DNA from: a virus
Virus record (IMG/VR): IMGVR_UViG_3300047160_010363
Location: 35,983 to 99,982 of that record
Length of the DNA stretch: 64,000 bases
Direction: 5' to 3' (one strand)
Shown: piece after piece, positions 32,654-58,641 of the stretch
Layout of the letters: every line of letters begins with the position of its first letter
Position numbering within the stretch: position 1 is the first letter of the stretch
The notes under the pieces: model-generated
What the model saw: the letters and a program-made list of their open reading frames with translations, nothing else
Told to the model about the DNA's origin: nothing
Database searches by the model: none
Translations under genes and position numbers: made by a program

Positions 32654-32853
32654 TCGGGAATCTCTGTCCATTCTGTAGGCTCCCATCCAAAGTCCGATAG
32701 CACACTGCCATCGATCATTCTCCAACGACCATCGTAGTAAGCGGATACCACAAAATAACGCACGCCCGTCATATGGGACGGACCCCGCACTAATACGTAT
32801 CTCCACTGCCAGATTTTGGATTTTGGTGCGGTTGATATAGGCTTCCAAATCAT
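32650..32853 (-). CDS. DUF551-like protein, paralog of 32205
   Basis: WKPISTAPK...PTEWTEIP; ATGA overlap with the glycosyltransferase stop. Confidence 0.65.
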   Translation of the reverse strand: MIWKPISTAPKSKIWQWRYVLVRGPSHMTGVRYFVVSAYYDGRWRMIDGSVLSDFGWEPTEWTEIPE

Positions 32854-35714: not shown

Positions 35715-35839
35715 GACGCAAACCTCCCAATGAACCACAGAACGAGTAGTAAGATAGCAGTCACGTAGACAAACGATCTGAAAGCAGGTGCCAGTGCAAC
35801 ACCAAATGCGACGGCAAAAACGAGAAAGAGAAAATCCAT
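35711..35839 (-). CDS. Small membrane protein (42 aa)
   Basis: Manual translation MDFLFLVFAVAFG..; GTGA overlap with the glycosyltransferase start. Confidence 0.45.
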   Translation of the reverse strand: MDFLFLVFAVAFGVALAPAFRSFVYVTAILLLVLWFIGRFAS

Positions 35840-36019
35840 TTATCTACCTAGTGGTGGACAATCACACTCGTGCATTTGACGACCACATTCTGGACATGGC
35901 AAAAACCACTCTTCTACATCGTCATATAATCCACAACATTCTGGACATTCTTGTGTCCATGGTACTCCGTGATTGCAACCATCTTCTGGTATTTTAGGGC
36001 TGGGTCTGTAACGTGACAT
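35840..36019 (-). CDS. Small Zn-finger protein (59 aa)
   Basis: Manual translation with CNHG..CPEC..CPEC..CDC. Confidence 0.5.
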   Translation of the reverse strand: MSRYRPSPKIPEDGCNHGVPWTQECPECCGLYDDVEEWFLPCPECGRQMHECDCPPLGR

Positions 36020-43806: not shown

Positions 43807-43858
43807 AGCGAGTTATTTTACCCTGTTTGGCCAGTGAAGTAAACTAAAATATTGCCTT

Positions 43859-44077
43859 CTAGATCGTCCATCCGTTGAGTTCGTTCCACCAGCGTTGAGC
43901 ATCTGGCGAAAGTGGACCAGTTAGAGATGATTCCAAAACATAAAGTGGATATAGCCGCGCTACGACGATGTTCGGGCATTGCCCTGGAAACCGATCGCAA
44001 TGATGTAGTGATACTTGCGGTTTACCACAGTCGCGGCATTTGCTCACAGCTCTACCTTCAGTGATATCGTAACTCAT
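43859..44077 (-). CDS. Small Cys-rich protein
   Basis: ATGA overlap with the polymerase stop; CRDCG..HC..CP. Confidence 0.5.
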   Translation of the reverse strand: MSYDITEGRAVSKCRDCGKPQVSLHHCDRFPGQCPNIVVARLYPLYVLESSLTGPLSPDAQRWWNELNGWTI

Positions 44078-46032
44078 GTCTGCACTCCCAAATCTCGCGC
44101 CAACCGTATTGCCTCTTCGCAATAGCGTACGTAATCCAAATCAGGTGGAAGATCTTCTGTCATCTCTGGCAACGGCCTAGCTCCGTCGGTTTTGGGCACC
44201 TTTTTACCATTGAGATGGCCAGCGGAACCATAGCGAATGGCCTCCCCATTCGCAGACCAGTAAAATCGTGCAGCTCTACCCAAAGCGTGACCACGCCAAA
44301 CGGCACCTCCGGTTACTTTTATCAAAGTAACAAACGCGCGCGGGTCTGAGCAATTGTAGACTGTTTCGTCAATAGGTACTTCCTCTGTGAGCCACCGCAT
44401 AACTGCATCAGAGCAAACACACATTTGTGGGTTCTTTGTAAGAGCAACCCTTTGGTCTCCATCTGCCCAAGGGTTGGCTATCCATCCCTTGCGCTTTACC
44501 TTGCCATCCTCCTTTAATGCGATATAGGTATTTACCGAAGATGACCAGAGTGCTGTATAGCGCGTGCGCTCTAGCACCATTCCTACGTCTTCTTCCCAAC
44601 GCGCTAAGATCATCTCGAATTGAGTTTCCAGAGCACGAGGACAGAGGAAAACGACACCATCCGTATTGGCACTAACAACTGGAATTCCAGCCTCTTCGGC
44701 CATCTCTATTAACATCAGTATTGAAAGCTGACCTGTAAGTGTCGTTGCTACAAGCATGTGCGGTGCATATAAAAACGAGTAAGAAGACCCCAGTTTACCG
44801 TAGACACCATTAACCGCGACGCGTCCCCCGTCCATTCTTACCTTGTCGCCGGCAGCCTTTGCGGCGAGACGCTCTTTCACGATATCGCCGTATACTTGTA
44901 AAAACTCTGGTCCAGTAGCTGCAGGATAGAGACCTAACCGTAGTATTAAATTAGGATATTGACTAGCTACGTCTACATCCACCAATTGGTGGTCTGTGTT
45001 TGAACGCAGCGCACGATGCTCCTCGGTGGAGTGTAGTCCGCCAATACCCATAGTATAAATTGAATTGCCAAGCGTTTCTGTGTGTGTTTTTAGCCAAAGT
45101 GGTGGTGTAATGTTGCCGAATGCGTCTACACTGAACTGAGCTTCATTTAATCTCGTCATCAGTGTGCGCAGCTGCTGGCTTTCAAAGCGTATCCATTCTG
45201 GCACAGTGTAACCAAACGTACTAGCTGTTGTAGTAGACTGCGCTATACGATGCCCTAACGCGCGCTCTACACCAGCGCGTACTACTGCTTCACCGACTTG
45301 CGCGTCGCTCTTTGAGCGGAGATCCAGGCCCCAGCGTTGACCCAGCGCAACGCGCATTTCCAGCGGACCACGCAGTGCATGGTAGAGTCCCTTCAGCGCG
45401 ACGAGGTCATTGAGGCAGTATAGCGTAACTATATTCATCTGGCTCGCTGTGAGCCAATCATCCGGTGGGAATGGCAGATCTACAATAAATTGACCATGCA
45501 GCCGACCATGGATCATTTTCAATGATTGCCGACCTGCGGGACAAGTCATCATCAGGTCTACATGATTTATCCCAGGCAAACCTTTCTCAGCTCTCGCACC
45601 CTCGTTTACAATAGACATGCTAAGAGTATAAAGTTCCTTGAGACTCGCTCCTGCTAATGCCGCTGCGATAACGGGCAAATCATAAGAGTTTCCATTGAAA
45701 CTAATGGTCACGCAGCGAGTCAGGAGATTTTTGATAGCTGTTCTGTTCAACTCGGAGCGATTGGATAGTTCAAACGCCATGCGCTTACCGTCGGTGAACC
45801 GGTGCACGCAGAGCAAGAAAAAGTTACGATAAATCTCTACATCTATCCCTACTGCGGTGCGTGCGTCCCAGTCCCAGCTATCGGCGTCTAAGGTAAGAGG
45901 AGCGTCACCCGCAGAGGCTAAAATCTCTACGTGAGACGCTAAAAACTGGTCACAATATTCTGGTGCCTGCTCCACAGGTGGCGTGGGTCGCCATCGTGGG
46001 CTGAACAGACCGAGCTGTAATGCGGTAGTCAT
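44074..46032 (-). CDS. DNA polymerase, family B-like phage type
   Basis: Exonuclease DVEIY and FNG.SYDLP; polymerase motifs DVASQYPNL, R(K)..VNGVYGK, SANTDG. Confidence 0.85.
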   Translation of the reverse strand: MTTALQLGLFSPRWRPTPPVEQAPEYCDQFLASHVEILASAGDAPLTLDADSWDWDARTAVGIDVEIYRNFFLLCVHRFTDGKRMAFELSNRSELNRTAIKNLLTRCVTISFNGNSYDLPVIAAALAGASLKELYTLSMSIVNEGARAEKGLPGINHVDLMMTCPAGRQSLKMIHGRLHGQFIVDLPFPPDDWLTASQMNIVTLYCLNDLVALKGLYHALRGPLEMRVALGQRWGLDLRSKSDAQVGEAVVRAGVERALGHRIAQSTTTASTFGYTVPEWIRFESQQLRTLMTRLNEAQFSVDAFGNITPPLWLKTHTETLGNSIYTMGIGGLHSTEEHRALRSNTDHQLVDVDVASQYPNLILRLGLYPAATGPEFLQVYGDIVKERLAAKAAGDKVRMDGGRVAVNGVYGKLGSSYSFLYAPHMLVATTLTGQLSILMLIEMAEEAGIPVVSANTDGVVFLCPRALETQFEMILARWEEDVGMVLERTRYTALWSSSVNTYIALKEDGKVKRKGWIANPWADGDQRVALTKNPQMCVCSDAVMRWLTEEVPIDETVYNCSDPRAFVTLIKVTGGAVWRGHALGRAARFYWSANGEAIRYGSAGHLNGKKVPKTDGARPLPEMTEDLPPDLDYVRYCEEAIRLARDLGVQT

Positions 46033-46364
46033 TCTGGATCATAGCCAAAAGGATGCTCCTGTGAATGTGGTACATATGGTCGGTTCGTCATCTCTAACTC
46101 CACAAGCATTAGATAACACCGTAGATCTCGTATATCGTCTAATATACCTTCAGGTCTTTTGTCCTCAATTATAGCTGCGAAGATATCATAGTGCTCTTTT
46201 TGAACCGTGGTCTCGAGCCGATCCCATTTACGTGCAAGCATCATGAATGCTCCCACACCACCTCTTCGCTTCCATGATTGGCCATACTCTACGTTTTTCA
46301 CGCAAAGAGTTTCGACATCTGCGTTTGCAATGAACTGCAAATCTTGCTTGAATGTAGAGTTCAT
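46029..46364 (-). CDS. Nucleotide-modification-associated domain 1 (Nmad1; all-alpha NTP pyrophosphatase-like)
   Basis: K...YG.SWKRRGGVGAFMMLARKWDRLE..YDIF..ILDDIRDLR.YL.LVE. Confidence 0.85.
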   Translation of the reverse strand: MNSTFKQDLQFIANADVETLCVKNVEYGQSWKRRGGVGAFMMLARKWDRLETTVQKEHYDIFAAIIEDKRPEGILDDIRDLRCYLMLVELEMTNRPYVPHSQEHPFGYDPE

Positions 46365-46780
46365 TTCGAAAATACCTTCCTTGCTTGCGCTACGAGAAGG
46401 TCTGATATCCTGCTTCGCTGGCTCCTACCTATTAAACTTTTTCTATGTAGCAAGATCATGGTATCGTCCCAATCGTCTCCTGGTGCATGAGCCACTATAA
46501 GTTTGCTATTCATATTAGCCCAGAGTATTTCACGCGCAGTGGAGTTCCCGATATATCCGTCTCCCAGCACGACTATCGCTTCTGAGGCGATAATCTTTTT
46601 AAAATAAACTAGATCAGCTATGGTCTTTTCAAGCTGACCTTCTGCCCAGTCTTCATTCGAACTCCTGTGTGAAGGCAACACTGCCAGGCTAAACACAGCC
46701 ACACCACGACTCCCTAGCTCGCGGGCAGCAGTGATGAATTCAGACTCGAACCTGACAGAGCCACATAGAGTAATAATCAT
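46361..46780 (-). CDS. Nucleoside 2-deoxyribosyltransferase/DUF4406-like protein
   Basis: ITLCGS.RF..F..KKI..S.AI.V..GYIG.ST..EI..A; ATGA-coupled on both sides. Confidence 0.7.
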   Translation of the reverse strand: MIITLCGSVRFESEFITAARELGSRGVAVFSLAVLPSHRSSNEDWAEGQLEKTIADLVYFKKIIASEAIVVLGDGYIGNSTAREILWANMNSKLIVAHAPGDDWDDTMILLHRKSLIGRSQRSRISDLLVAQARKVFSK

Positions 46781-47790
46781 TTCGCCCTCCTCCTTTCTAA
46801 CCATTGCAATGCAGCCATTTGCCAATCTGCAGCGAGACACTGGTCAACACAAGCAAATGCAGTGTCCCAGTCCTTGCGCTTCCACGCTTCGTGGGCCCAC
46901 CACAAAGGTTTAGCTACACGATGAAACCAGCGATTTCTAAACCCATTTGCGCTTGGGTCCTCCAGGAAAAGTGCTAAATCCATGTCCCATGTAGTCGGGT
47001 CGTCTACTAGCGGGAAAGGCGCTACTATGGCAGGATTGGTATAGGGGTCTGTTGGAGTCTCTTCACGCAACGCTGCGCGTAGCTTATCGTACAGAGCCAC
47101 ATAGGCGTGGAAGTCGTTACTGACTTGGTAATACGTACCAACAACCAGACCAAGGTTAGCAGCGACATACTCCTGCAACATGGAAAATACTACTGCGTTC
47201 TCTCCATATGCGCCCCAAATAAGATCATTACTACGGCACGTCACAGTTATGTTCAGCCGGTTGGGCTCATCGCGACAGCCTAAGCTGACACGAAAGTAGA
47301 CCTGAGTATTGCACGGCACGGAAGGTGTGCTTTCGCCCACATATAGATCGCGATCTGGGTCCCACATCGTGAGCACCGCACGCCGACCATTGGGATTGGC
47401 TTGTAGATACTTTATCACACGTACAAGCTGATCTTTTTCCTCTCCCTTGAACACACTGGGCCAGTGACGCCAACGCCATCCATAGGCGTCGCTAAGCACA
47501 CCATTGGTACTGAACCGCGCACCGTAGCCACGAATAAAACGATCCAAGAATGCTGCGTCGTTGCGTCCTCCTAGGCAGTGGAGACCAGCGAACAAGTGAA
47601 AGAAGGGGTTAGCGTCCCGCGCTGGCCAGAACAGCACTCGCTCTGCTGGTCTCTCGTAAACAGTCGTCACTGGATATGGCGAGACGATCACATCGCCAGC
47701 TCGTGAAGGCATGGGCTGACCGCAGTCAGTCAGGTGCCTCATACCTTGAACTATAGCATCGTTTACGTTACGAGCGCGAATTACGTGCAT
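46777..47790 (-). CDS. Thymidylate synthase homolog (dUMP hydroxymethylase-like, divergent)
   Basis: RDANPFFH, AYG.RWR, DQL, RRAVLTMWDP, VPCN, RSND.IWGAYG.N, FHAY; ATG at 47790 with GAGGA RBS. Confidence 0.85.
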   Translation of the reverse strand: MHVIRARNVNDAIVQGMRHLTDCGQPMPSRAGDVIVSPYPVTTVYERPAERVLFWPARDANPFFHLFAGLHCLGGRNDAAFLDRFIRGYGARFSTNGVLSDAYGWRWRHWPSVFKGEEKDQLVRVIKYLQANPNGRRAVLTMWDPDRDLYVGESTPSVPCNTQVYFRVSLGCRDEPNRLNITVTCRSNDLIWGAYGENAVVFSMLQEYVAANLGLVVGTYYQVSNDFHAYVALYDKLRAALREETPTDPYTNPAIVAPFPLVDDPTTWDMDLALFLEDPSANGFRNRWFHRVAKPLWWAHEAWKRKDWDTAFACVDQCLAADWQMAALQWLERRRAK

Positions 47791-47852
47791 ATGGTCGTTT
47801 CCTCTTGATTGAGTGGACCAGCGCTTATAAATCCGGCACTTATATGCCAGTC

Positions 47853-48737
47853 TCAATAATACTCTTGGTTCGACTTGTACTCTTGTCTCGGACGTCCCTG
47901 GCCTAACTGTGTGCGAATGTATTTGCTCACCTCACAGCAGACGTTCGTAACATCACTGAGATCTAGTTCAATTCCTTCCTTGATCAGTGCAGACCGTAAC
48001 TCCAGCAGCTCTGGTAGCGCTTGACTCTGTCTCAGATTGAACTGCGCTGGACGGTCATTAAGGTAATTCAACCCCTGAATAGTGCCAGGGCCAGCAGCAG
48101 CCCATGTGTTAATGTCTGGTGCATCGCACAGATATCGTGTCCAGCGCATATCTACACAAATTTGATATGCCATGAACTGACCTATGCCGTTGATTTTGCA
48201 GAGTCTTTCGTGGGTGCCCTGTATAGTTGGGTCTGCTTTAGATTTTAACTGAGGTGAAAGATAATAATTGATTGACTCTCGCTTTTCCCACAGCGAAGCT
48301 AACACGCTGCCTGCCACGCATTGCGCTTTGTCGACGCCTCTCGGCACAGAGCGATTATTGAGCATATAAGCGGATGTGAATACTTTCTCTGCGCGAGCAT
48401 GGCGGTCCCGCAGTGTATTGACGATAGCTGACGCGTAGTAATCGCGTGCTGGCCAAAGCCCACGATCCATGATCTCTTGCAGTGTCGGCGGCCAGTTAAT
48501 GTGACGTGCTAAAGCAAGCATGAACCAGAGGTTAGGGCTATCTGCGTAGGGCTCGCGGGTATGTCGTGCTATCCATCGTGTTACGCGGTCGTCCTCGCGA
48601 TGCAGGTTACAGAACCGATATCGGTTCAATATCTCATCATCTGTCCACGGACGCGGCTCACCGGCCTTCTTACGACGGAGAATGGCTTCGCGTTCGCGAC
48701 ACCAGTAGACGAATGTGGAGAAAACGTCTGAATTCAT
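47853..48737 (-). CDS. 5-hydroxymethyl-dU DNA kinase (aGPT-Pplase1)
   Basis: ERE.I...K..G...PWT.D.IL..YRFCN..REDDRVT.WI, R..NWP.TL, KVFT.AY, G.G.FMAYQ...D, GPG...GL, CE..KY. Confidence 0.92.
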   Translation of the reverse strand: MNSDVFSTFVYWCREREAILRRKKAGEPRPWTDDEILNRYRFCNLHREDDRVTRWIARHTREPYADSPNLWFMLALARHINWPPTLQEIMDRGLWPARDYYASAIVNTLRDRHARAEKVFTSAYMLNNRSVPRGVDKAQCVAGSVLASLWEKRESINYYLSPQLKSKADPTIQGTHERLCKINGIGQFMAYQICVDMRWTRYLCDAPDINTWAAAGPGTIQGLNYLNDRPAQFNLRQSQALPELLELRSALIKEGIELDLSDVTNVCCEVSKYIRTQLGQGRPRQEYKSNQEYY

Positions 48738-49333
48738 GGCGGTATCCTCAGTAGCTCAAACGTGCGCGCGAGTGCCGCAGCGCGATCAAGATGCACTATT
48801 CGCAGACCTTCGCGAGCGTGTTTTTTGGAGGACCCAATTAAACCAGCGTGCTTTTTTGTCGTATTGTGTGGATTTACAAGACCAAGATCTTTCCCTAACC
48901 GCGCTCCGCGCTCAGCTCGTCGTGCGTTAACCGCAGCGAGACAGTCCTCGAGCGAGGTATTCAGATGGATCACTGTTAGATCTGGACCCAATCTACGCAA
49001 ACGATCCCCACCCCACGCAGAGACCATCAAGCCTTCGAGCAGCACATTACCTTGTCCGGATTGCTGCTTGACAAGTCTCTCTATATCATCAGGTGCCCCA
49101 GGCCAACTGAGAGTGTCGCATCCACCACAAGTCACATCATAACGACCGATAACACTGAGAGGAAGAATGTCGGGACAGGAGCACCAGTAGTAACCCGCCA
49201 GCTTATTAGCTGGTTTTTTCATGGAAGTATCTATAAGACCTAAAGTATCATCGTGTTGACCCAATCGCTCCATGACTCGGTTGACGATATAGGTCTTGCC
49301 AGAGCCCGACGTCCCTCGTAGCATGATTATCAT
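48734..49333 (-). CDS. P-loop nucleotide kinase (probable 5hmdUMP kinase)
   Basis: IMLRGTSGSGKT, G.Y...CGGCDT, VLLEG, LNT..EDCL..V..RR; ATGA-coupled. Confidence 0.8.
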   Translation of the reverse strand: MIIMLRGTSGSGKTYIVNRVMERLGQHDDTLGLIDTSMKKPANKLAGYYWCSCPDILPLSVIGRYDVTCGGCDTLSWPGAPDDIERLVKQQSGQGNVLLEGLMVSAWGGDRLRRLGPDLTVIHLNTSLEDCLAAVNARRAERGARLGKDLGLVNPHNTTKKHAGLIGSSKKHAREGLRIVHLDRAAALARTFELLRIPP

Positions 49334-49776
49334 GTGGCAACCCACTCCTGCATCCAAGGCTTCAGCGAGGCTGTCGGCACTGCGGTTAGCACGTGCTCTC
49401 TGGCTTGTGTCGCGGTCCAGTGGTTGTGAAATGCAGTGACCATAATGCAGAACATCACACTTCGCGTCTTGCCAGCTTCGCACAGTACTAGTAGACGTTT
49501 GCCTGGGAACTGGAGGTAGTCAGCTGCGGCGCGGGCAGCGAGCTCTACGTGTGGTTTCTGCATGTCCTCGCTGCGATGACATGAGAGTTGGAGGATAAAA
49601 TCAAGACCAGAGTCTGCCAGCTCGGGATCAGGCTTAGGCCATAAATTCGTGATCGCTGTCACTCCAGCCTCACGCAGCGCAGCCAGCTTGGGCTCTCTCT
49701 GCCATGTGAGAATTTGCGCTCGCTGTAGCAGTCGCCCCGGCAGCACTTCGCGGAACGCGCCGCGAGTGGTGTTCAT
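49330..49776 (-). CDS. CX5R (PTP/DSP-fold) phosphatase
   Basis: L..AGVTAI.NL and LLVLCEAGKTRS active-site loop. Confidence 0.8.
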   Translation of the reverse strand: MNTTRGAFREVLPGRLLQRAQILTWQREPKLAALREAGVTAITNLWPKPDPELADSGLDFILQLSCHRSEDMQKPHVELAARAAADYLQFPGKRLLVLCEAGKTRSVMFCIMVTAFHNHWTATQAREHVLTAVPTASLKPWMQEWVAT

Positions 49777-50789
49777 TACACTCTCTCCATTGGATGAGCC
49801 ACATTAGTTGTTCCGGACCAGTCGTATCTGAGATCTGACCAGTTATATCCGTGGTCACGCAGAGTGCGCGTCAGTGGCCACCGAGTACCATGCCACCCAC
49901 TGATCTCGCCGAGTGCCTCTGGTGGAAATAATGCTTTACGAGCACGCCAAAGAAGAGTAACATCTATCTGTTCTCCCCAGTACTCGAAAACCTTATCGTA
50001 CAGCAGTGGCTCCTGATCGATGGTCCATCCTGGATACTGATGATAATTTTCGTATGCTGACTTCATCTCACAGAGCATGGCTGCTAGGATATATTCATTA
50101 ACCTCCGGTATCTCGGTTCGCACTCGTTTCAATAGTTGCTCGCAGAGCTGGTTCGTCAGCTCGTTGCCCTCGACGTTATCAACGAGTAATTTTTCCATAT
50201 GTTCCGGATAGAGCAGGCACAGCATACGCTTTGGCGACCACCCGCCCACGGAACGTATGTCGTAGAGCATAGCTGGTACATTAAAGTATCGGCGCAGACC
50301 CTCCACGAAGCGTATGTTGATATATCTACCAAAGAACTTAATCCCACCAGCACTATCCCAGACATAATCGTAGTTGGTACGGCTAAGCTCTTTCGGCAAT
50401 AGACTCAACTCTGGATAATCATATTCTATCCATTGAGCCAGCGAAGCCAAACAGCGAGCCATCTTGACCGGCGACCGCACGCAGCGGCGTTCCGTACGGG
50501 TAATTATGCCGGGCCAATGCTCACGCAACCACAGCTCAAGATTCTCACAGCGTGCCACCTCAAACGGCTTCAAGGTCCAAATGACCTGTGCCGTGGGCAG
50601 GCAGTAGGTCGCTGCATAGCATCCCAGAGCCCAGAGCCCCTGTGCCGTGGGCATATCCCGCACCAGATAACCCATGATCGCGAGATGTGGCGAGGGCTCA
50701 CCCACAGCTAGCTTGAACCTGGTGAATTCCACGAATTTCTCGTAATGCCACTCCGGCGAGTGGTCGCTTATAACGGGTCGTTGGCTCAT
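49776..50789 (-). CDS. Amino acid:DNA transferase-like protein (aGPT-Pplase2, HhH glycosylase fold)
   Basis: W..G.Y...Y, W...HW....R.ERR, FFGRY..IRF.E, GG.SP...L, LCE.K, YPG..ID, W.AR...FP...LGE..GW.G. Confidence 0.7.
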   Translation of the reverse strand: MSQRPVISDHSPEWHYEKFVEFTRFKLAVGEPSPHLAIMGYLVRDMPTAQGLWALGCYAATYCLPTAQVIWTLKPFEVARCENLELWLREHWPGIITRTERRCVRSPVKMARCLASLAQWIEYDYPELSLLPKELSRTNYDYVWDSAGGIKFFGRYINIRFVEGLRRYFNVPAMLYDIRSVGGWSPKRMLCLLYPEHMEKLLVDNVEGNELTNQLCEQLLKRVRTEIPEVNEYILAAMLCEMKSAYENYHQYPGWTIDQEPLLYDKVFEYWGEQIDVTLLWRARKALFPPEALGEISGWHGTRWPLTRTLRDHGYNWSDLRYDWSGTTNVAHPMERV

Positions 50790-50826
50790 AGCTTTAGAAC
50801 ACTCTCCACCATTTTTTCTAGGAGTT

Positions 50827-51984
50827 TTAGACCTTTCCCGCCGCTAACTGGCCGCCACCCCGTTCGTGCTCTCCCTGCACGTCCGCCGGAGCTCCGATGA
50901 GCCACACCTCCATACCGTCAAGTGCCCACACCTCGTCAGGCGCTTGTACAGGTGGGTGCTTAAACAACCATGCTGAAGGCTCCGCTATAGCTCCGGACTC
51001 TCCACGATCTAGTGCCACTCGAGCGCAGCGCACTGCATCCACCACGACACCGGCCGAGTTGGGAGAGTCCACTACTTCCAGTTTGAGCTCAATGTTGATT
51101 GGTGCTCCGCCGAACCCCGAACCCTCAAGGCGGATATGTGCCCACTTGCGATCCTGCAGCCAAGGCACATAGTCACTAGGGCCAATATGAACAGAGTTGG
51201 CAGGCAGATCCCGGCTAAAAGTAGCTCGCACAGCAGCAGTCTTTGATTTCTTTTTGGTATCTAAACGCTTACGCTCCAGCATGTTATAGAAATCTGCGTT
51301 ACCACCCACATTGAGCTGACTAGTACGATCAAGCCGCACCCCGCGGTCCCGGAATAATGCGCTCAGTGCACGATGCACTGAGGTGGCACCGAGTTGGCTC
51401 TTCACATCATCACCCAACAAGGGCAGGCGATTAGAGGCAAATTCATCAGCCCAGTGACGATCACTAGCAATAAACGTTGGCATACAATTGACAAAAGCGC
51501 ACCCTGCCATCATTGCAGCGCTCGCGTAATATCGCGCAGCTTTTTCACTACCCACTGGTAGGTAATTAATAACGATTTCAGTGTCAGATTCTCTCAGCGC
51601 GTTGGACACATTTACGGGAGACAGATGAGATTCATCCACCATGTTGGAGAGATATTCTCCGAGCCCATCAAACGTAGGACCTCGTTGGACAATGACGTCC
51701 TCTGCAGCAGTATTACGGTAATTGACAATGTCACGATAATTCGCGAACTGCAGAGTGTTGTTAGGCTCGCCAGTTATGGCTAACGAGAGTGGGCGACCAA
51801 CCTTTTCCGCAGTAACGTCGAACGCAGCAGCAACTTCAATGTCAGCTACGGAATAGCCTCCTATAACCGGCATCATTAAACCATCAGTATTGTTGTTAGT
51901 CTGGGAATAATGAGCTAACCCCTGCACGAACGCAGAGGCGCAATTGCCCACTCCGATTATGGCGACTCGAATCTTGTTTTTCAT
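50827..51984 (-). CDS. ino1: myo-inositol-1-phosphate synthase (inositol-3-phosphate synthase)
   Basis: VAIIGVGNCAS..VQG, AAFDV..KVG, RGPT.DG, NYLPVGS, AFVN..P.FIA, GDD.KSQ.GAT, QLN.GGN.DF.NM, SKT, HIGPSD, DRK, DSPNSAG. Confidence 0.95.
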   Translation of the reverse strand: MKNKIRVAIIGVGNCASAFVQGLAHYSQTNNNTDGLMMPVIGGYSVADIEVAAAFDVTAEKVGRPLSLAITGEPNNTLQFANYRDIVNYRNTAAEDVIVQRGPTFDGLGEYLSNMVDESHLSPVNVSNALRESDTEIVINYLPVGSEKAARYYASAAMMAGCAFVNCMPTFIASDRHWADEFASNRLPLLGDDVKSQLGATSVHRALSALFRDRGVRLDRTSQLNVGGNADFYNMLERKRLDTKKKSKTAAVRATFSRDLPANSVHIGPSDYVPWLQDRKWAHIRLEGSGFGGAPINIELKLEVVDSPNSAGVVVDAVRCARVALDRGESGAIAEPSAWLFKHPPVQAPDEVWALDGMEVWLIGAPADVQGEHERGGGQLAAGKV

Positions 51985-52568
51985 TTGGCTATCTTCCTTT
52001 CTGCTGCAGTAACGATGCGCTCTGGCGCGCCATTAAGCACCTCTCGCCAAGGTAGCTCTGGCTGTATTGTGTTGAATTGACGACCTTTTAGCGTTTCATA
52101 TACTTTAGGACGCATATGCCAGAGAAGGTCTGGATTAGTCACGAATAATCTAAACATCTCCGCAAACCACTCCCAATCGTTAGGGCAATATCCCGTTAAC
52201 GGAGATGATCCAGTGGTTTGACGAATGGTAGAGCTGAGATCTGACCAGTACGGTCCACGACGGCGAGGGTCTACCGAGTTGTGCCAATCAACATGATGAC
52301 CTAGCTCATGGGCGAGCACCCCGAACGGTGTGCGGTCAATCGCATAACCAGGCCACGACCAGGCTCGCCCAGCGTATCCTGGCACCGCACAAATCTCCGG
52401 ACATATATAAATGATGTTGTCCCGATAGTAGGCGCAAGCGCCTACTCTCCAGGCGTCCCTTGGACGCACCTGGACCTCAACCGGGGGCAGCGCGGGATTA
52501 GCCCGCAACCAATCCTCTATGCGCTCCTGGCCTCGCCGGAGGAGGTAGCGGCGAACGTTTTCGGTCAT
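51981..52568 (-). CDS. Zincin-like metallopeptidase
   Basis: LAHELGHHVD plus downstream EWFAEMF; ATGA-coupled to ino1. Confidence 0.7.
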   Translation of the reverse strand: MTENVRRYLLRRGQERIEDWLRANPALPPVEVQVRPRDAWRVGACAYYRDNIIYICPEICAVPGYAGRAWSWPGYAIDRTPFGVLAHELGHHVDWHNSVDPRRRGPYWSDLSSTIRQTTGSSPLTGYCPNDWEWFAEMFRLFVTNPDLLWHMRPKVYETLKGRQFNTIQPELPWREVLNGAPERIVTAAERKIAK

Positions 52569-52726: not shown

Positions 52727-52881
52727 GGGCTTACCTCCATGAATAACATTATAAACGGTAATCGGCTGGAAAGTAAACTGGAATCTATTCGACGAATATA
52801 GACGCTCGTCCCGGAACAATAGCGTATATCATTGGGCGACGACCGTGTTCATCCTTCCCCGCTGCGTCGCGAGCAACCCGC

Positions 52882-52916
52882 GCCTCGGTGAGTGTTAGGT
52901 ACTCACCGAGGCTTTT
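52882..52916 (+). terminator. 12-bp perfect hairpin with T-tail on the + strand
   Basis: GCCTCGGTGAGT-N7-ACTCACCGAGGC-TTTT. Confidence 0.5.
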
Positions 52917-52996: not shown

Positions 52997-53680
52997 TTAT
53001 CCTGCGGGGGAAAGCAGCTCGGTAGGGTTTACTCGAATGTGACCCTTACGATTGCCATAGACAATATGGCTCATCGTGATGCCCGCATCAAGAGCCTCTT
53101 TGACAGTCATACCGTCGCGATATTTATCGTGCATAGAATGAGACTTGGAACCCGGACGTTGCGGGTTTTTTTCAGCCAGCACTTTAATGACATCGCTGTC
53201 ACTGTGTAGCCGGTTTGGCCCTCTCTTGACTTTTACCGTTGTTTCTCCTGCGCCATTGCTTTCGGTGGTGGTCACAGTTTCTCCTGCGCCATTGTTTTCG
53301 GTGGTGGTCACAGTTTCTCCTGCGCCATTGCTTTCGGTGGTGGTCACAGTTTCTACTCCTTGGGTTGGGGTTAGTGGAGGGGGCAAACGAGACAACGCCT
53401 CAAGCAGCCTACGGACGCCGGTGGTGCGGGTGTCAAAGCGTTTTATTTGTCCACCAGTTAGCGCATTGTAAGCTAACACTAGTGTGGATAGAGACAGACT
53501 TATGTCGGCCTCGTTTTCTATCACCAGAGCGCACCCGCCCACACCTGGCTTGTTTGTAAACGGCACCGAGGGCACTATCGCGGATGTAGCTGCGAGTTGT
53601 GCCTCAGCGCGAGTTGTGTAAGCCTGAGCAATCCAGCGATCGCTAGGATCCTCTCCATAGGCTATGAGATAAGCTGTCAC
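52997..53680 (-). CDS. Putative DNA-binding protein with 12-aa repeats
   Basis: ETVTTTE(S/N)NGAG x3; C-terminal NPQRPGS...YRDGMTV.EAL domain. Confidence 0.65.
   Translation of the reverse strand: MTAYLIAYGEDPSDRWIAQAYTTRAEAQLAATSAIVPSVPFTNKPGVGGCALVIENEADISLSLSTLVLAYNALTGGQIKRFDTRTTGVRRLLEALSRLPPPLTPTQGVETVTTTESNGAGETVTTTENNGAGETVTTTESNGAGETTVKVKRGPNRLHSDSDVIKVLAEKNPQRPGSKSHSMHDKYRDGMTVKEALDAGITMSHIVYGNRKGHIRVNPTELLSPAG
53240..53354. repeat. 36-bp tandem repeat, about 3 copies
   Basis: GTTTCTCCTGCGCCATTG(C/T)TTTCGGTGGTGGTCACA. Confidence 0.9.
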
Positions 53681-53700: not shown

Positions 53701-53729
53701 ATTATACCCCCATTTAGCAGATAAGTAAA
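53701..53729 (-). promoter_or_regulatory. Sigma70-like promoter
   Basis: TTTACT-17 bp-TATAAT with GG before the -10 box. Confidence 0.75.
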
Positions 53730-53730
53730 T

Positions 53731-54663
53731 TCAAAATGGTGGATCGTCGAGATCTACCGCAGATCCACCACCAAGATCGTCGTCAGGACGGTACTCGCGT
53801 ACAGCACCCGTGCGATATTGCTTTAAGCTGGCTACTGCCATCTCGTACAGCTCAGGATCTTGCACCATCACCTGGTTATCCAGGAAATAGCTATCTATCT
53901 CGGGATTGGCCACCTTAGAGGCCAGCTCTATGGACCATGTGAAGAATTTCCCTTGATCGTTCTGCTCTGGCTGAGAACGCAAACGCCAGCGCCAAAAACA
54001 GAGCGGAGCAGGTGCTATCTTACCGTTAGGCTGAGCGAATCGTGCTCGTCCGTGGCGACCGTTATACATCTGCCACGTCTTTAAGCTGGAGCTCTGGAAG
54101 TTTACCATCGCTCGCTGTGCGTTAGCAGCAGTTAGTGGCGGTGGAGCAAACAGAATAAAGAGCTCGCCGGTTTCTGTCAAACTGACCGTCTCGCCGTCAG
54201 CATTTTCCCAAGGCAAAGGCTTGAAATCACCATGCTGAGCAACCAATCGCTGTATAACCGGGTCGGTAACCTCGTGGAAACCACGGAAATTGCCCGAGCG
54301 TACCCGCACGATCGGTCGCCCAGACTTATCCGGCCGCGGTATCCACTCCTGATAGCGACGCTTGGTGCCACAGACCACCATGTCGAGACCAGTGCGCTGA
54401 CCCTCCCAAACCTCACCGACACTAACGTCCATGATCATACCAGGTTTGGCGCCATAGATAAATTTGGCGTCATTCTCGTCAGTTTGGGGACAGGCATAGT
54501 GCACGATACGTAACAATGGTGTCGGCTGGTCTCTAGCGCCGAGATCTTCAGTGCCGAGACCTTCTAGGCCACCGAAATCGATGACTTGGAGTGCGGTGCC
54601 CGTCGTCGGCACGGGGAGCTTCGGCTCGTCTTCTGGTTTTTTGGCTTGGTTTGAATTTGCCAC
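53731..54663 (-). CDS. Putative ssDNA-binding/annealing protein
   Basis: G.E.L...D...P.L.I....PQ..GAKPG...Y.EW.PR; acidic tail ending DDPPF. Confidence 0.55.
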   Translation of the reverse strand: MANSNQAKKPEDEPKLPVPTTGTALQVIDFGGLEGLGTEDLGARDQPTPLLRIVHYACPQTDENDAKFIYGAKPGMIMDVSVGEVWEGQRTGLDMVVCGTKRRYQEWIPRPDKSGRPIVRVRSGNFRGFHEVTDPVIQRLVAQHGDFKPLPWENADGETVSLTETGELFILFAPPPLTAANAQRAMVNFQSSSLKTWQMYNGRHGRARFAQPNGKIAPAPLCFWRWRLRSQPEQNDQGKFFTWSIELASKVANPEIDSYFLDNQVMVQDPELYEMAVASLKQYRTGAVREYRPDDDLGGGSAVDLDDPPF

Positions 54664-54733: not shown

Positions 54734-55135
54734 CTAATGTGTCTTTATATATTCTTCGTCATAGCCTTGACGACGAAGACCAGCCTCGTATGCTTTGCGC
54801 TGCTTATATCTACGTTGTTGCGCAGCCTTCTTTTCCATCGCGGCGTGACGAATAGCATATTGTGCCTCATGTGGCGTCAAGCCACACAAATCAAAAGATG
54901 GATCAGAGTATCCTTCAGATGATACCTCGACACCAGGATCAGAGTGTTCCCGGACAAGAATTTTGATACACTCCAACAAACGTCGATGCGATGCACGAAG
55001 TTTGGTGTAGGCTGCGCATGGCTCAGCACCATCTGGCATCATACAATCGGGTAACAGTTGTTCGACAAGGTAGAAGTAGTTGCCATACACCGGATAATCG
55101 TCAGGGAGTACAGGCTCGTTCAGTTGGCTCGTCAT
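54734..55135 (-). CDS. Hypothetical protein
   Basis: ATGA-coupled start at 55135. Confidence 0.5.
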   Translation of the reverse strand: MTSQLNEPVLPDDYPVYGNYFYLVEQLLPDCMMPDGAEPCAAYTKLRASHRRLLECIKILVREHSDPGVEVSSEGYSDPSFDLCGLTPHEAQYAIRHAAMEKKAAQQRRYKQRKAYEAGLRRQGYDEEYIKTH

Positions 55136-55734
55136 CTCTCCACAAATCCTTTCAATTCGACCTGTTTGGGCCGACTTTCTCCGACTTGAGCCCATTTGCG
55201 CTCTCGTACGCCAAGCAACTCCAGAGGCGGGTCTTTCATTTGCCTAATAAGCTCACCGACCCAACTGGTCAATGAATTCCAAGGTATCATGCGTTTAAGA
55301 TTGAGAGATTTTAATCGATTGGCAGAAGGATGTCGCCTTATCATCTCAAACACCTCACGCGCAGCCTCTATGTCCTTGGCGTCGAATTGAGCAGTAACAG
55401 TTGCACGTATCAACGACGCTCCATCATGCGACTCCACCCAATCCAGACCCTCCAGATTGGCTCGGCCTTCCCCGTAATCGTCAAGCTGACCGGCTACCAG
55501 AGTGTACTTCAATTCGACGGGTGTGCCGTTAAGTAGTTTGAACTCACTCTGGCCTGCTTGCCGCATGGCATCTGGCAGATCCACTTCCGTCTTGCGTCTG
55601 TACACTTCCAACATAACCTTCAGCTCTGTTGTTTTCCGCACGATTGCGCTCTGGTCGCGGAGTATATCCTCCGCGAGATCGCTGAGATTGCGACGCTCAT
55701 CGTCAGTGGGTTCGTCTAGGAATGTGTCTGTCAT
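55132..55734 (-). CDS. Conserved phage replication-module protein
   Basis: DLP.AM..AG..EFKL.NG..W....G.SLI...V...F pattern; precedes the SSB-like gene. Confidence 0.55.
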   Translation of the reverse strand: MTDTFLDEPTDDERRNLSDLAEDILRDQSAIVRKTTELKVMLEVYRRKTEVDLPDAMRQAGQSEFKLLNGTPVELKYTLVAGQLDDYGEGRANLEGLDWVESHDGASLIRATVTAQFDAKDIEAAREVFEMIRRHPSANRLKSLNLKRMIPWNSLTSWVGELIRQMKDPPLELLGVRERKWAQVGESRPKQVELKGFVER

Positions 55735-56156
55735 TCTCTCACCAAGCAGTGACCGCGCTGCGCGCACCGCGCGAACTCACGCGGGAACACGCGACAGAAT
55801 AGGTTGAGCGACCAGCGACAAGCGCCACGCTCGTTCCGGCCCAGAGCGTGGGCAAACTCGTGTAAATATGTGACCACCGAGTGTCCGGTCAGTACTAACA
55901 TACAGCGACCTGTCCCAGTGACACAACAATAGGATTGTAGCGATGTGCGGCTTTTCTGGAACACGAGAATTGGTTCCGGGATACTGTAAACACGAGCTAG
56001 CGACATATTCAGCCTCAGCATCTTACCTTCGCGGTCACCCGACCATGGGCGAGAGCGGCGGTACGCACGCAGAGCGGACAGACATCCTCGTCGATAGCGC
56101 ACGTTAGGGGATAGTACTTCCGCTACTGTGGCAGGATAATCTCTACGCGAGCGCAT
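55731..56156 (-). CDS. Small HEXXH metallopeptidase-like protein
   Basis: SVVTYLHEFAHALG..E..AC.WS. Confidence 0.6.
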   Translation of the reverse strand: MRSRRDYPATVAEVLSPNVRYRRGCLSALRAYRRSRPWSGDREGKMLRLNMSLARVYSIPEPILVFQKSRTSLQSYCCVTGTGRCMLVLTGHSVVTYLHEFAHALGRNERGACRWSLNLFCRVFPREFARCAQRGHCLVRE

Positions 56157-56703
56157 CAGTGTCTACCCCATAAGCGACCGGACCGTGACTGGGCCGCGCA
56201 CGACGACGGCGAACGTCTGGTCCGACGTGTTTATCGTTCCAGCTTGCTTCTACTGCACGATCAAGGTAATCCAGCGGCAGCCCAAAATCACGATAACCCT
56301 GGGCTATCACATCAAGGTACCACTCGCCTGGTGGTGCTATTTCGTGGGACTGCATGCAGTAGACCAGGCATTCCTCAGGTCGGCCATTTATCCGTATTTT
56401 GATATAGCATTTAGCGTAGAAACCACTCGCTACACCTTCATAGCGGTCCAATACAACTTCATCGGCTGGCGTTATCCGCCAAAGTGCGACGGGACACCGG
56501 GACGCTGGATCGGGATCGTAAACCACGTCAGCCACTCCGCGGAACACAAGCTGCGCATGAGGCAAGAAACGTGCACCCACTGGCCGCGCGCCGGGACACC
56601 GTCGCTGCATCTGCTCTTTGTTTAAATTTGATCCATAAGCGAGATATAATTGTCCACTAGAGCGCAGGTTAGGTAGCGCACGTGGCTTATGTTTAGCAGT
56701 CAT
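56143..56703 (-). CDS. Gamma-glutamylcyclotransferase family protein
   Basis: LYLAYGSNLN..QM..RCP.A..LVFRG.A..LW.IT..D...LD.YEG. Confidence 0.85.
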   Translation of the reverse strand: MTAKHKPRALPNLRSSGQLYLAYGSNLNKEQMQRRCPGARPVGARFLPHAQLVFRGVADVVYDPDPASRCPVALWRITPADEVVLDRYEGVASGFYAKCYIKIRINGRPEECLVYCMQSHEIAPPGEWYLDVIAQGYRDFGLPLDYLDRAVEASWNDKHVGPDVRRRRARPSHGPVAYGVDTDALA

Positions 56704-56941
56704 AATGTTTCTCCTCTGGTTGGGTTTCGCCTATCAACAGACCTGCCGCAATAAGGTCGGTCACGAAATTCTCAGCGCTGTCCGAGCGCACAGGTTTGCC
56801 ACTCAACAACGCTGCGCGGCTAGCAGCGAGCTGCATAAATTCAGCGACAGAGCGCCCTGGTAAGTGGCTAGCGGCACGCAGCTCACGCACCATCTTCCTG
56901 GGCTCCGTCGCGGTTATCTCTATACCGTCGCTGGTACGCAT
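56693..56941 (-). CDS. Hypothetical protein
   Basis: TAATG-coupled to the amidoligase. Confidence 0.55.
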   Translation of the reverse strand: MRTSDGIEITATEPRKMVRELRAASHLPGRSVAEFMQLAASRAALLSGKPVRSDSAENFVTDLIAAGLLIGETQPEEKHYDC

Positions 56942-58041
56942 TATTCAGCACTCGCTATATGTGCGAACCGAGCCGTCCGAGCAGCCAGGTAAGCCGTTAG
57001 GTCTTCCGGAAGGTCAAGCTCGGCTGCCAGCGCTGGGACGCCACCCGTGGAAGTGTTCACAGTCTCGTTGGTCTCGATTCGCACCAGGTTCATCAGTCCA
57101 CGGCTTATGTTATAATTTAAATCGCCGTTGACACGATCATAGGTAAATCCAGACGCCATAGCAGCTTCCAGAGCCTCACTGACAGTCATACCATCGCGAT
57201 AAAGCTCCCAGAGCCGATGAGCGGCTGAACCGCGACGCTTAGGGTTGACAACACGACATTTCTGAATTTGCTGCCATCCATGCAATCGGCGTCCGCGAGC
57301 GACTGGTATGGTCTGAGTTAGGACCGCACTAACTAGACCGACATCATGCCCGTTGTCTGTGGCCTTAGAGGCCAGCGCGAGGCAGAAACGGATCCAGTTA
57401 ATTATCTTATTACTTTCAACGGTGCCGGAATGCTGCCGAAACTCAACCGTGCCGTGCCGCCAGTACGACATCAGATTGACTTTGCAATACCGGTCATTAT
57501 TCGTGACTCTTTGAAGATCTTGAAGGGTCTCGGCCGAGGCTGCTCGTGCTGCCCAGCCTACCGCTTTACAATAGTTATTAACACGCCGCGAAGGTGCGAG
57601 ACACCCGTCAATCGCCGGCTCGTGCTTGGCATAGATCGCACCGACCCGTTTCATGAATTCGATCGCAACAGGCGATTGAGGCTCGGTGCTAAAAGAGCCG
57701 GGGCGACGCCCCTCGGGCACACCCACATGGACATGTAGTCCGCAACGGCGGTCAACTGTCGCACCGAACGCCTGAATAGCGATGGCTGCGCGGCGCACCG
57801 CGTCGAGCCCTTCGGGTCCCTTGAGAACCGGCGAAACCACCTCGGCGCCACGGCTATAATCGCCAAGGCTGCCATCTGTCACGACCTTCCATGCCTCCCG
57901 GGGAGCGTGGTTGTAAATCTCAGATGCACATGGAATCTCGGCTGCGCTTATCGCGGCCGCGAGGTCGGCGTGGGTCTTTCCGACCGGGAGGTAGCACTCA
58001 ATCTCGACTCCGAAGGTGAAGTCGTCAGGGGTAAGGGTCAT
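56941..58041 (-). CDS. Putative amidoligase (COOH-NH2 ligase type 2)
   Basis: FGVEIE, WKVV.DGSL, EVVSP.L, CGLHVH, RY.K.N, TVEFR.H.GT; C-terminal NPKRRGS..YRDGMTV domain. Confidence 0.85.
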   Translation of the reverse strand: MTLTPDDFTFGVEIECYLPVGKTHADLAAAISAAEIPCASEIYNHAPREAWKVVTDGSLGDYSRGAEVVSPVLKGPEGLDAVRRAAIAIQAFGATVDRRCGLHVHVGVPEGRRPGSFSTEPQSPVAIEFMKRVGAIYAKHEPAIDGCLAPSRRVNNYCKAVGWAARAASAETLQDLQRVTNNDRYCKVNLMSYWRHGTVEFRQHSGTVESNKIINWIRFCLALASKATDNGHDVGLVSAVLTQTIPVARGRRLHGWQQIQKCRVVNPKRRGSAAHRLWELYRDGMTVSEALEAAMASGFTYDRVNGDLNYNISRGLMNLVRIETNETVNTSTGGVPALAAELDLPEDLTAYLAARTARFAHIASAE

Positions 58042-58091
58042 GAGGGGGTTCTCCTCTGGTTGGCGTCGGCGAGGTTTACGTTCCATTTTAT

Positions 58092-58612: not shown

Positions 58613-58641
58613 ATCATACCTGGTCTTTAGGGAAAAGTAAA
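58613..58641 (-). promoter_or_regulatory. Sigma70-like promoter
   Basis: TTTACT-17 bp-TATGAT with GG before the -10 box. Confidence 0.65.

Follow-up and report, generated by a model that had tools for sequence, protein, structure and literature searches.

A predicted thymidine-hypermodification operon lies on the minus strand of a 64,000-nt stretch of viral DNA (positions 35,983 to 99,982 of the IMG/VR record IMGVR_UViG_3300047160_010363; hereafter the window), and contains a gene for a myo-inositol-3-phosphate synthase (MIPS, or Ino1) next to those of a divergent amino-acid:DNA transferase (AADT) and a Cys-based phosphatase. From its gene content we lean, by a modest degree, towards reading this operon as one that would join an inositol-derived cyclitol to 5-hydroxymethyl-deoxyuridine (5-hmdU) and remove the phosphate. 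The kinase/AADT route itself is known; what is new is a further class of adduct on that route and the pairing of an AADT with a phosphatase. To our knowledge, all known thymidine hypermodifications of the kinase/AADT route carry amino-acid- or polyamine-derived groups. An initial annotation of the window, made from the sequence alone, had stated that no inositol-modified base was described, and the literature searched agrees with it: in full text, no paper linked inositol to a DNA base, the main papers on thymidine hypermodification made no mention of inositol, and those with both inositol and DNA-modification terms had inositol only in the names of glycosyltransferase homologs.

The record is a single linear sequence of 99,982 bp, ~80% complete according to CheckV; a megablast search with the region found no counterpart among phage records. 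The minus-strand genes are contiguous from 52568 to 44074 and, judging by the letters at their junctions, form one translationally coupled block (Table 1). The run of genes from MIPS to the DNA polymerase described by the initial annotation is real, and seven of its nine labels were confirmed by family, fold and homology searches. The claim of ATGA or TAATG overlaps at most junctions also stands: there are six ATGA overlaps within the run and one more upstream, the AADT and phosphatase genes meet at a TAATG, and MIPS is separated from the AADT by a 37-nt gap. In family searches the operon showed no pyridoxal-phosphate (PLP), radical-SAM, flavin or acetyltransferase gene, in agreement with the reported lack of amino-acid tailoring genes.

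Regarding the MIPS, residues 3-363 align to Ino1 of M. tuberculosis (1GR0) at 4e-120, which together with the family match supports the label that it had received. The motifs GVGNCAS (the N-terminal NAD-binding GxGNCAS), GDDxKSQxGAT, LNVGGN and DSPNSAG are all retained, and by these features the enzyme is apparently intact.

The initial annotation had predicted that MIPS and AADT genes would co-occur among related phages, and they do so whichever of the two is taken as the starting point. Starting from the AADT, alignment-based searches gave 60 loci with an enzyme of the same type as that of the window, which we call the 'LCEY' type (29 from IMG/VR and 31 from metagenomes). Besides the window, 17 of these 60 loci have a MIPS gene at most 0.8 kb from the AADT, and in nearly every contig that extends far enough, a phosphatase gene lies directly downstream of the AADT. 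The gene order varies, being either MIPS-AADT-phosphatase or AADT-phosphatase-MIPS, and the identity of the AADTs to that of the window goes down to 35%. In a quick maximum-likelihood tree of the AADTs, the window clade has 18 members, 10 of them MIPS-linked and 8 from contigs too short to judge, and a separate clade of five is MIPS-linked throughout. Starting from MIPS, we analyzed the best 80 of the 247 IMG/VR loci retrieved by a MIPS alignment search, and 62 of them adjoin an AADT. In 41 of the 80 (group A) an LCEY-type AADT lies within 1.6 kb; 39 of these include the phosphatase as well, and the remaining two stop at a contig edge. Another 21 loci (group B) are T4-like and combine a Tet_JBP protein, a Cr30-like AADT, MIPS, a 126-aa protein and a P-loop kinase. 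The MIPS gene adjoins a QueC-like protein in five loci (group C), and the remaining 13 have neither an AADT nor a QueC-like neighbour. Dereplicated at 95% MIPS identity, the loci form 61 clusters, and 47 of these adjoin an AADT.

The AADT of the window was annotated as AADT-like (aGPT-Pplase2), and both its family match, above the PF18724 cut-off, and its fold bear this out. The 337-aa long form is backed by conserved N-terminal residues, the 299-aa database gene call being too short. Its AlphaFold2 (AF2) model has a mean predicted local distance difference test (pLDDT) score of 92.9, and the top fold in the PDB is PUGT, the gp46 protein of PaMx11 (8Z2N; probability 1.0, template modelling (TM) score 0.53-0.61), a helix-hairpin-helix (HhH) glycosylase-like fold matched at ~15% identity. 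Cys240 is kept in at least 95% of 72 aligned subfamily members and, in a profile alignment, falls on the catalytic Cys of ETVLCKWK in YuA gp10, the canonical ETxLCxxK motif. A word-indexed database yields 166 homologs of the window enzyme and, in a set of 1.84 billion clusters, 213 representatives belong to the subfamily at E ≤ 1e-30. In IMG/VR, the alignment-based search succeeded where a pattern search with this single AADT sequence gave nothing; likewise, the subfamily profile matched no solved structure in the PDB by sequence, and only the fold search reached PUGT. Two of the homologs have unusual architectures: P0149 (761 aa) is a tandem double AADT, and P0178 (524 aa) has a 187-aa N-terminal extension ahead of the AADT.

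The gene downstream of the AADT had been labelled a CX5R phosphatase, a label upheld by its CEAGKTRS motif and its fold. Cys99, Gly102, Arg105 and Ser106 are invariant in 23 aligned homologs. Asp50, a candidate for the general acid, is likewise invariant, in a WxKxD motif. The AF2 model (pLDDT 95.9) matches DUSP28, DUSP9, DUSP26, VHR and PTPMT1 in Foldseek, all with probability 1.0 and TM scores of 0.70-0.76. By sequence, the protein stays under the Pfam DSPc gathering threshold (14.7 vs 33.5 bits); the homolog from locus L006 reaches 32.7 bits. Among 264 retrieved proteins of the AADT subfamily, 16 are AADT-phosphatase fusions, always with the AADT at the N-terminus and with the CX5R loop intact, and further fusions were found among the viral loci. 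These fusions suggest a two-step tool that acts on DNA, coupling first and dephosphorylating afterwards. A match to PTP-like phytase in the fusion protein P0098 (E 0.003) was below threshold and we do not count it as evidence. No TAGT (TET-associated glycosyltransferase), Tet_JBP protein, inositol monophosphatase (IMPase) or HAD-like protein was found in the 100-kb record, at ~80% completeness; with neither of the last two detected, the dual-specificity phosphatase (DSP) is the only phage phosphatase candidate there.

The remaining genes of the pathway would supply 5-hmdU and activate it. The thymidylate-synthase (TS) homolog, correctly named in the initial annotation, has 45% full-length identity to YuA gp17, a putative deoxyuridylate hydroxymethyltransferase, and is a probable dUMP hydroxymethylase; since this identity begins at residue 23 of the open reading frame (ORF), translation probably starts at 47790. 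Both kinase-related genes of the run are present, although the label of 5-hmdU DNA kinase had probably been placed on the wrong one. The P-loop protein shares 26% identity with YuA gp13 (E 0.002), matches phrog_800, a family in which the YuA-type kinases are included, and occupies the syntenic position of YuA gp13 and M6 gp54. The PF18723 protein, 37-42% identical to homologs from YuA, Pam3 and a Rhizobium phage, is the counterpart of YuA gp14 and M6 gp55. In M6, gp51 (the AADT) and gp54 (the P-loop kinase) were enough for glycine to be added to 5-hmdU DNA in vitro, and gp55 was dispensable (PMC8989533). By this synteny, gp54 being the demonstrated 5-hmdU DNA kinase and gp55 not being needed, the P-loop protein rather than the PF18723 protein is the probable catalytic kinase of the window. 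The activation step had been described as a pyrophosphorylation, which is reported for PhiW-14 and SP10; the kinases of M6, ViI and PaMx11 yield instead the monophosphate, 5-phosphomethyl-deoxyuridine (5-PmdU) (PMC8989533, PMC11472151). The run ends with a DNA polymerase, as annotated, of the A family.

In order to contextualize this operon, it can be compared with systems that are known. Its gene order recurs in the 5-(2-aminoethyl)-deoxyuridine (5-NedU) pathway of Pseudomonas phages M6 and YuA, which has an AADT, a P-loop kinase, an HMUDK_hel/aGPT-Pplase1 protein, a TS homolog and an A-family polymerase in the same order as the window. In YuA these are gp10 (AADT), gp13 (P-loop kinase), gp14 (PF18723), gp17 (TS homolog) and gp21 (PolA), with gp11 (PLP) and gp12 (radical-SAM) after the AADT. 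The pathway was reconstituted in M6, a close relative of YuA, where the counterparts are gp51 (AADT), gp52 (PLP), gp53 (radical-SAM), gp54 (P-loop 5-HMUDK) and gp55 (PMC8989533). The window lacks the PLP decarboxylase and the radical-SAM isomerase, and has MIPS and the Cys-based phosphatase in the tailoring slots, with MIPS preceding the AADT gene and the phosphatase following it, ahead of the kinase. In the pathway of Salmonella phage ViI, which makes 5-(2-aminoethoxy)methyl-deoxyuridine (5-NeOmdU), the AADT gp247 uses a hydroxyl nucleophile and leaves an ether at the C5 methyl (PMC8989533). There the nucleophile is the side chain of serine, followed by PLP decarboxylation, whereas the window has no PLP enzyme and the nucleophile that we propose is a cyclitol. 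The closest cultured synteny is that of Pseudanabaena phage Pam3, which is laid out like YuA and shares with the window the AADT, the P-loop and aGPT-Pplase1 proteins, the TS homolog, a gp54-like protein and PolA, as well as gp33- and gp34-like proteins. Unlike the window, Pam3 carries neither MIPS nor the phosphatase, and its AADT has PLP and radical-SAM genes upstream. Finally, base J and the TAGT-dependent glycosylation of 5-hydroxymethyluracil (5-hmU) or 5-hydroxymethylcytosine (5-hmC) also place a bulky polyhydroxylated group on a C5 hydroxymethyl pyrimidine, and MIPS-less relatives of the AADT-phosphatase pair do carry a TAGT. The glycosyltransferases of those systems take the sugar from a nucleotide sugar and link it to the hydroxyl itself through a glycosidic bond, in contrast with the ether via phosphate activation proposed here.

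A second arrangement is found in Caulobacter phage Cr30 and in Cr30-like contigs of T4 type, whose DNA-modification cluster likewise has MIPS in direct linkage with an AADT and a kinase. In Cr30 (L001, KF301602.1 53130-60681) a single stretch holds a Tet_JBP protein, a canonical AADT (PF18724 1e-52), a weak TAGT-like protein, MIPS and a small HAD-like DxDGV protein. The Tet_JBP domain (8.7e-23) is within a protein annotated as 'putative SNF2 DNA repair protein', ~2 kb from the AADT, TAGT-like, MIPS and HAD-like genes. Cr30 differs from the window in that its AADT belongs to another clade, its phosphatase candidate is HAD-like and not DSP-like, and its 5-hmU probably comes from post-replicative oxidation of T. 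No DNA modification of Cr30 was reported in the literature searched. The 126-aa protein with an N-terminal DxDGV recurs beside MIPS in Cr30, Mendera and RP13, and we take this start for a motif typical of HAD phosphatases. In Ralstonia phage RP13 (L003, LC554890.1 87801-93854), MIPS (ORF125) has a PF18723 HMUDK_hel gene (ORF120) 3 kb upstream of it and the HAD-like ORF127 after it, and there is also a divergent TS homolog; neither of the two AADT profiles found an AADT in RP13.

By comparing the window with these systems, we can propose a sequence of steps. By homology to the studied pathways, the TS homolog would produce 5-hydroxymethyl-dUMP, which the phage polymerase would put into DNA as 5-hmdU, and the P-loop kinase with its helical-domain partner would convert this into 5-PmdU. 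As in M6, ViI and PaMx11, Cys240 of the LCEY-type AADT would attack C6 and expel the phosphate, leaving an exocyclic methylene. From the gene context, MIPS would turn glucose-6-phosphate into an inositol species whose hydroxyl would capture the methylene, a capture for which the O-linked serine of ViI is a chemical precedent. The product would be a base of the 5-(inositol-O-methyl)-dU type. The DSP-fold phosphatase would strip the inositol phosphate, preferably after coupling, on the DNA-bound adduct; alternatively it could act before coupling and give free inositol. We favour coupling of the inositol phosphate before dephosphorylation because the phosphatase is tethered to a DNA enzyme and persists without MIPS, and by analogy with pathways of the mycothiol type. 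In the synthesis of mycothiol, mycobacterial phosphatidylinositol and di-myo-inositol-phosphate, inositol phosphate is coupled first and dephosphorylated later. Judging from other hypermodified bases, such a bulky polyol in the major groove might hinder host nucleases.

Several findings weigh against this proposal, starting with the source of the DNA, an uncultured metagenomic IMG/VR contig. In the AADT, the canonical Glu-Thr before the Cys is Ala-Ala (AAMLCE), with a Glu directly after the Cys, and across the subfamily this position varies (AA, QV, AT, QS). The window AADT is only remotely related to those of M6 and YuA, and it lacks the Glu of ETxLC that is essential in M6 gp51 and ViI gp247 (PMC8989533), so its catalytic details may differ. 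PUGT, the 5-PmdU glycinyltransferase (8Z2M/8Z2N; PMC11472151), matches the AADT model better than any other structure and its catalytic Cys is aligned, but in the alignment to the YuA gp10 profile the ET of ETxLC falls on the Ala-Ala of the window. The metal ligands of PUGT are Glu243 and Thr244 (PMC11472151), equated with this ET by residue numbers alone. With Cys240 kept, the Glu-Thr replaced and a Glu following the Cys, the active site seems to be rearranged and not lost. Besides, at 85%/15% the AADTs with and without a linked MIPS are not split by any alignment column, and relaxing this to 70%/30% gives a single weak one. The phosphatase tracks the AADT type and not MIPS, being present in MIPS-less relatives, and its fold search returned generic DUSP and PTPMT1 matches only, with no clue to the substrate. 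In one clade without MIPS, the neighbours of the AADT and phosphatase are ParB, a Tet/JBP oxygenase and a TAGT, an arrangement matched by the ParB-dependent T-dioxygenase clusters (PMC13229309). Since the pair is kept there without MIPS, it must work with another partner in those phages, or on a DNA-bound phosphate.

One could argue that the AADT uses an ordinary host metabolite (an amino acid, a polyamine or another alcohol) and that MIPS is an auxiliary metabolic gene for the supply of host inositol, mycothiol or phosphatidylinositol, placed in the operon for co-expression with early nucleotide-metabolism genes. The MIPS-less relatives of the AADT-phosphatase pair and the lack of a specificity signature in the AADT fit this explanation, as do the 13 of 80 viral MIPS loci without an AADT or QueC-like neighbour and the fact that the nearest cellular model of the MIPS is the actinobacterial mycothiol Ino1. 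Against it stand the 62 loci in which MIPS adjoins an AADT: their AADTs fall into two clades that are unrelated, 5-hmU would be reached by two different routes, the genes do not keep a fixed order, and they are translationally coupled. It also leaves unexplained why an AADT should have MIPS as its sole tailoring or nucleophile-supply gene, and we regard it as unlikely.

The tie between phosphatase and AADT invites another explanation, in which the phosphatase acts on DNA to reset or edit 5-PmdU back to 5-hmdU, so that the adduct stands at chosen sites only and the rest is 5-hmdU, perhaps glucosylated in TAGT-bearing relatives. Such a role agrees with an enzyme that goes with the AADT, itself active on DNA, and is often fused to it, and that persists in relatives with a hydroxymethyl-base glycosyltransferase and no MIPS; in addition, the Cr30-like MIPS clusters have no DSP phosphatase and show the small HAD-like protein beside MIPS instead. 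However, a phosphatase of this kind would oppose the kinase encoded two genes away, and it is the only phage phosphatase in the record available to partner MIPS. The phages studied so far turn unmodified sites into T and do not leave them as 5-hmdU (PMC8989533). We find a reset of 5-PmdU distinctly improbable.

The identity of the cyclitol is another point on which the proposal can be challenged. The MIPS scores 436.9 bits on TIGR03450, under the NCBIfam equivalog cut-off of 638, which points to a diverged family member, and we infer its exact product. The family also includes 6K96, a five-membered cyclitol-phosphate synthase, which is the second-best solved relative of the window enzyme. The MIPS homolog could consequently make another cyclitol phosphate, or the adduct could be altered further, and the base would not be a plain myo-inositol ether. 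Such alteration would be O-methylation in some relatives, as genes for FkbM-type methyltransferases are found between or beside MIPS and the AADT in about ten loci. They are inserted between MIPS and AADT, as in L039, L044, L088, L089, L097, L106, L107 and L110, or between AADT and phosphatase; that of L013 (5438-6091) belongs to PF05050. Their presence suggests an O-methylated version of the adduct in some phages. For the window itself we give a different cyclitol or a further alteration a slim chance: the full-length match to the M. tuberculosis Ino1 is far better than that to 6K96 (4e-120 against 3e-53), and there is no methyltransferase in the operon. On balance, the inositol-modified thymidine put forward in the initial annotation is partly supported, by the operon without amino-acid tailoring genes, by MIPS in a tailoring slot and by the co-occurrence; the phosphatase, tied to the AADT type rather than to MIPS, and the AADT, with no residue signature, qualify this support.

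One last objection comes from an Amidoligase_2 and a GGACT gene, 4-6 kb upstream on the same strand, which are not conserved with the cluster. We considered them as tailoring enzymes and rejected them; related loci match them only briefly, through a basic domain. This short domain is common to the C-terminal part of the Amidoligase_2 protein and to a 227-aa protein, and 12 of the MIPS loci have it close to their modification cluster, at times on the opposite strand. Because a hairpin and a promoter-like site intervene, and because of the lack of conservation, we treat the two genes as a separate module. The hairpin, in the 177-nt gap upstream of the operon, is probably the boundary with the upstream module, and together with the promoter-like site just upstream it suggests that the operon is its own transcription unit. 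The -35 hexamer TTTACT of this site is shared with three other minus-strand promoter-like sites (53701-53729, 58613-58641 and 43815-43843), all with spacers of 17-18 nt; in total, the scanned stretch has 23 promoter-like sites, vs 13.6 ± 3.5 in shuffled sequence.

Table 1. Features of the operon and of its surroundings, in window coordinates
Feature	Coordinates	Strand	Observations
Amidoligase_2 protein	56941..58086	-	
GGACT protein	56143..56703	-	
Homolog of Pam3 gp33	55132..55767	-	DUF7307
Homolog of Pam3 gp34	53731..54663	-	PF23977
227-aa protein	52997..53680	-	
Hairpin	52882..52912	.	strong, 14-bp stem
Promoter-like site TTTACT-18-TATAAT	52748..52777	-	consensus match only
195-aa protein	51981..52568	-	HELGHH (HExxH), zinc-protease-like motif; ATGA overlap with MIPS
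Myo-inositol-3-phosphate synthase (MIPS/Ino1)	50827..51984	-	PF01658 6e-34, 116.8 bits
Divergent AADT (aGPT-Pplase2 family), 'LCEY' type	49776..50789	-	337 aa; PF18724 39.1 bits, gathering cut-off 26.2
Cys-based phosphatase, dual-specificity fold	49330..49776	-	148 aa; CEAGKTRS P-loop, CX5R(S) motif
P-loop kinase (probable 5-hmdU DNA kinase)	48734..49333 (ORF 48734-49483)	-	phrog_800 1.6e-10; likely ATGA start at 49333
HMUDK helical-domain / aGPT-Pplase1 protein	47853..48737	-	PF18723 (HMUDK_hel) 4.5e-45
Thymidylate-synthase homolog (probable dUMP hydroxymethylase)	46777..47790 (ORF to 47856)	-	phrog_5131 1e-91
139-aa protein	46361..46780 (ORF to 46840)	-	start at 46780 by homology and junction
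111-aa protein, Pam3 gp54 homolog	46029..46364	-	near the cluster in several loci
A-family DNA polymerase	44074..46032	-	phrog_1252 1e-158; final gene of the coupled block
962-aa protein	32850..35738	-	GT2 and GT17 domains

Among the other genes of the block, the 195-aa HELGHH protein gave no family match and is absent from related loci. Two labels of the initial annotation could not be sustained: the 'NDT-like' 139-aa protein had no match in Pfam, PHROG, NCBIfam or PDB sequences, and the supposed 'Nmad1' of 111 aa had no family match in the same four collections. The latter is 48% identical to Pam3 gp54, annotated as 'nucleotide modification'. Upstream, the homologs of Pam3 gp34 and gp33 are likewise found upstream of the cluster in L007, the nearest relative, which points to kinship with Pam3-like phages. 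The 962-aa protein with two glycosyltransferase domains, ~8 kb downstream of the polymerase, shows no link to the operon.

MIPS is also found among genes of another pathway. In the Stenotrophomonas phage Mendera (L002, MN098328.1 28852-32547), MIPS and the small DxDGV protein lie among the 7-deazaguanine genes for GTP cyclohydrolase I, a QueC-like Rossmann protein and QueE, and in five IMG/VR loci (L095, L118, L129, L135 and L137) MIPS is directly beside a 343-aa QueC-like protein. From this context, these phages may make an inositol-linked derivative of 7-deazaguanine.

Taken together, the loci raise an appreciable possibility, to which we would give slightly less than even chances, of an undescribed family of cyclitol-bearing phage DNA bases. 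In it, inositol would be put on 5-hydroxymethyluracil by two unrelated AADT clades, the LCEY type with its tethered DSP and a dUMP hydroxymethylase, and the Cr30 type with Tet/JBP; Menderavirus-like phages might carry a 7-deazaguanine derivative made via the QueC-like enzyme, and O-methylation would occur where an FkbM-type methyltransferase is present. Related MIPS clusters are present in cultured phages, namely Cr30 (the classical transducing phage of Caulobacter), RP13 and the Menderaviruses of Stenotrophomonas. If our reading is true, bases with a cyclitol would add a new chemical class to those of natural DNA, and the substrate range of the AADTs would be wider than that known at present. 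Such a base would bring a bulky, neutral and non-glycosidic group into the major groove, of interest for nuclease resistance and for the enzymatic labelling of DNA.

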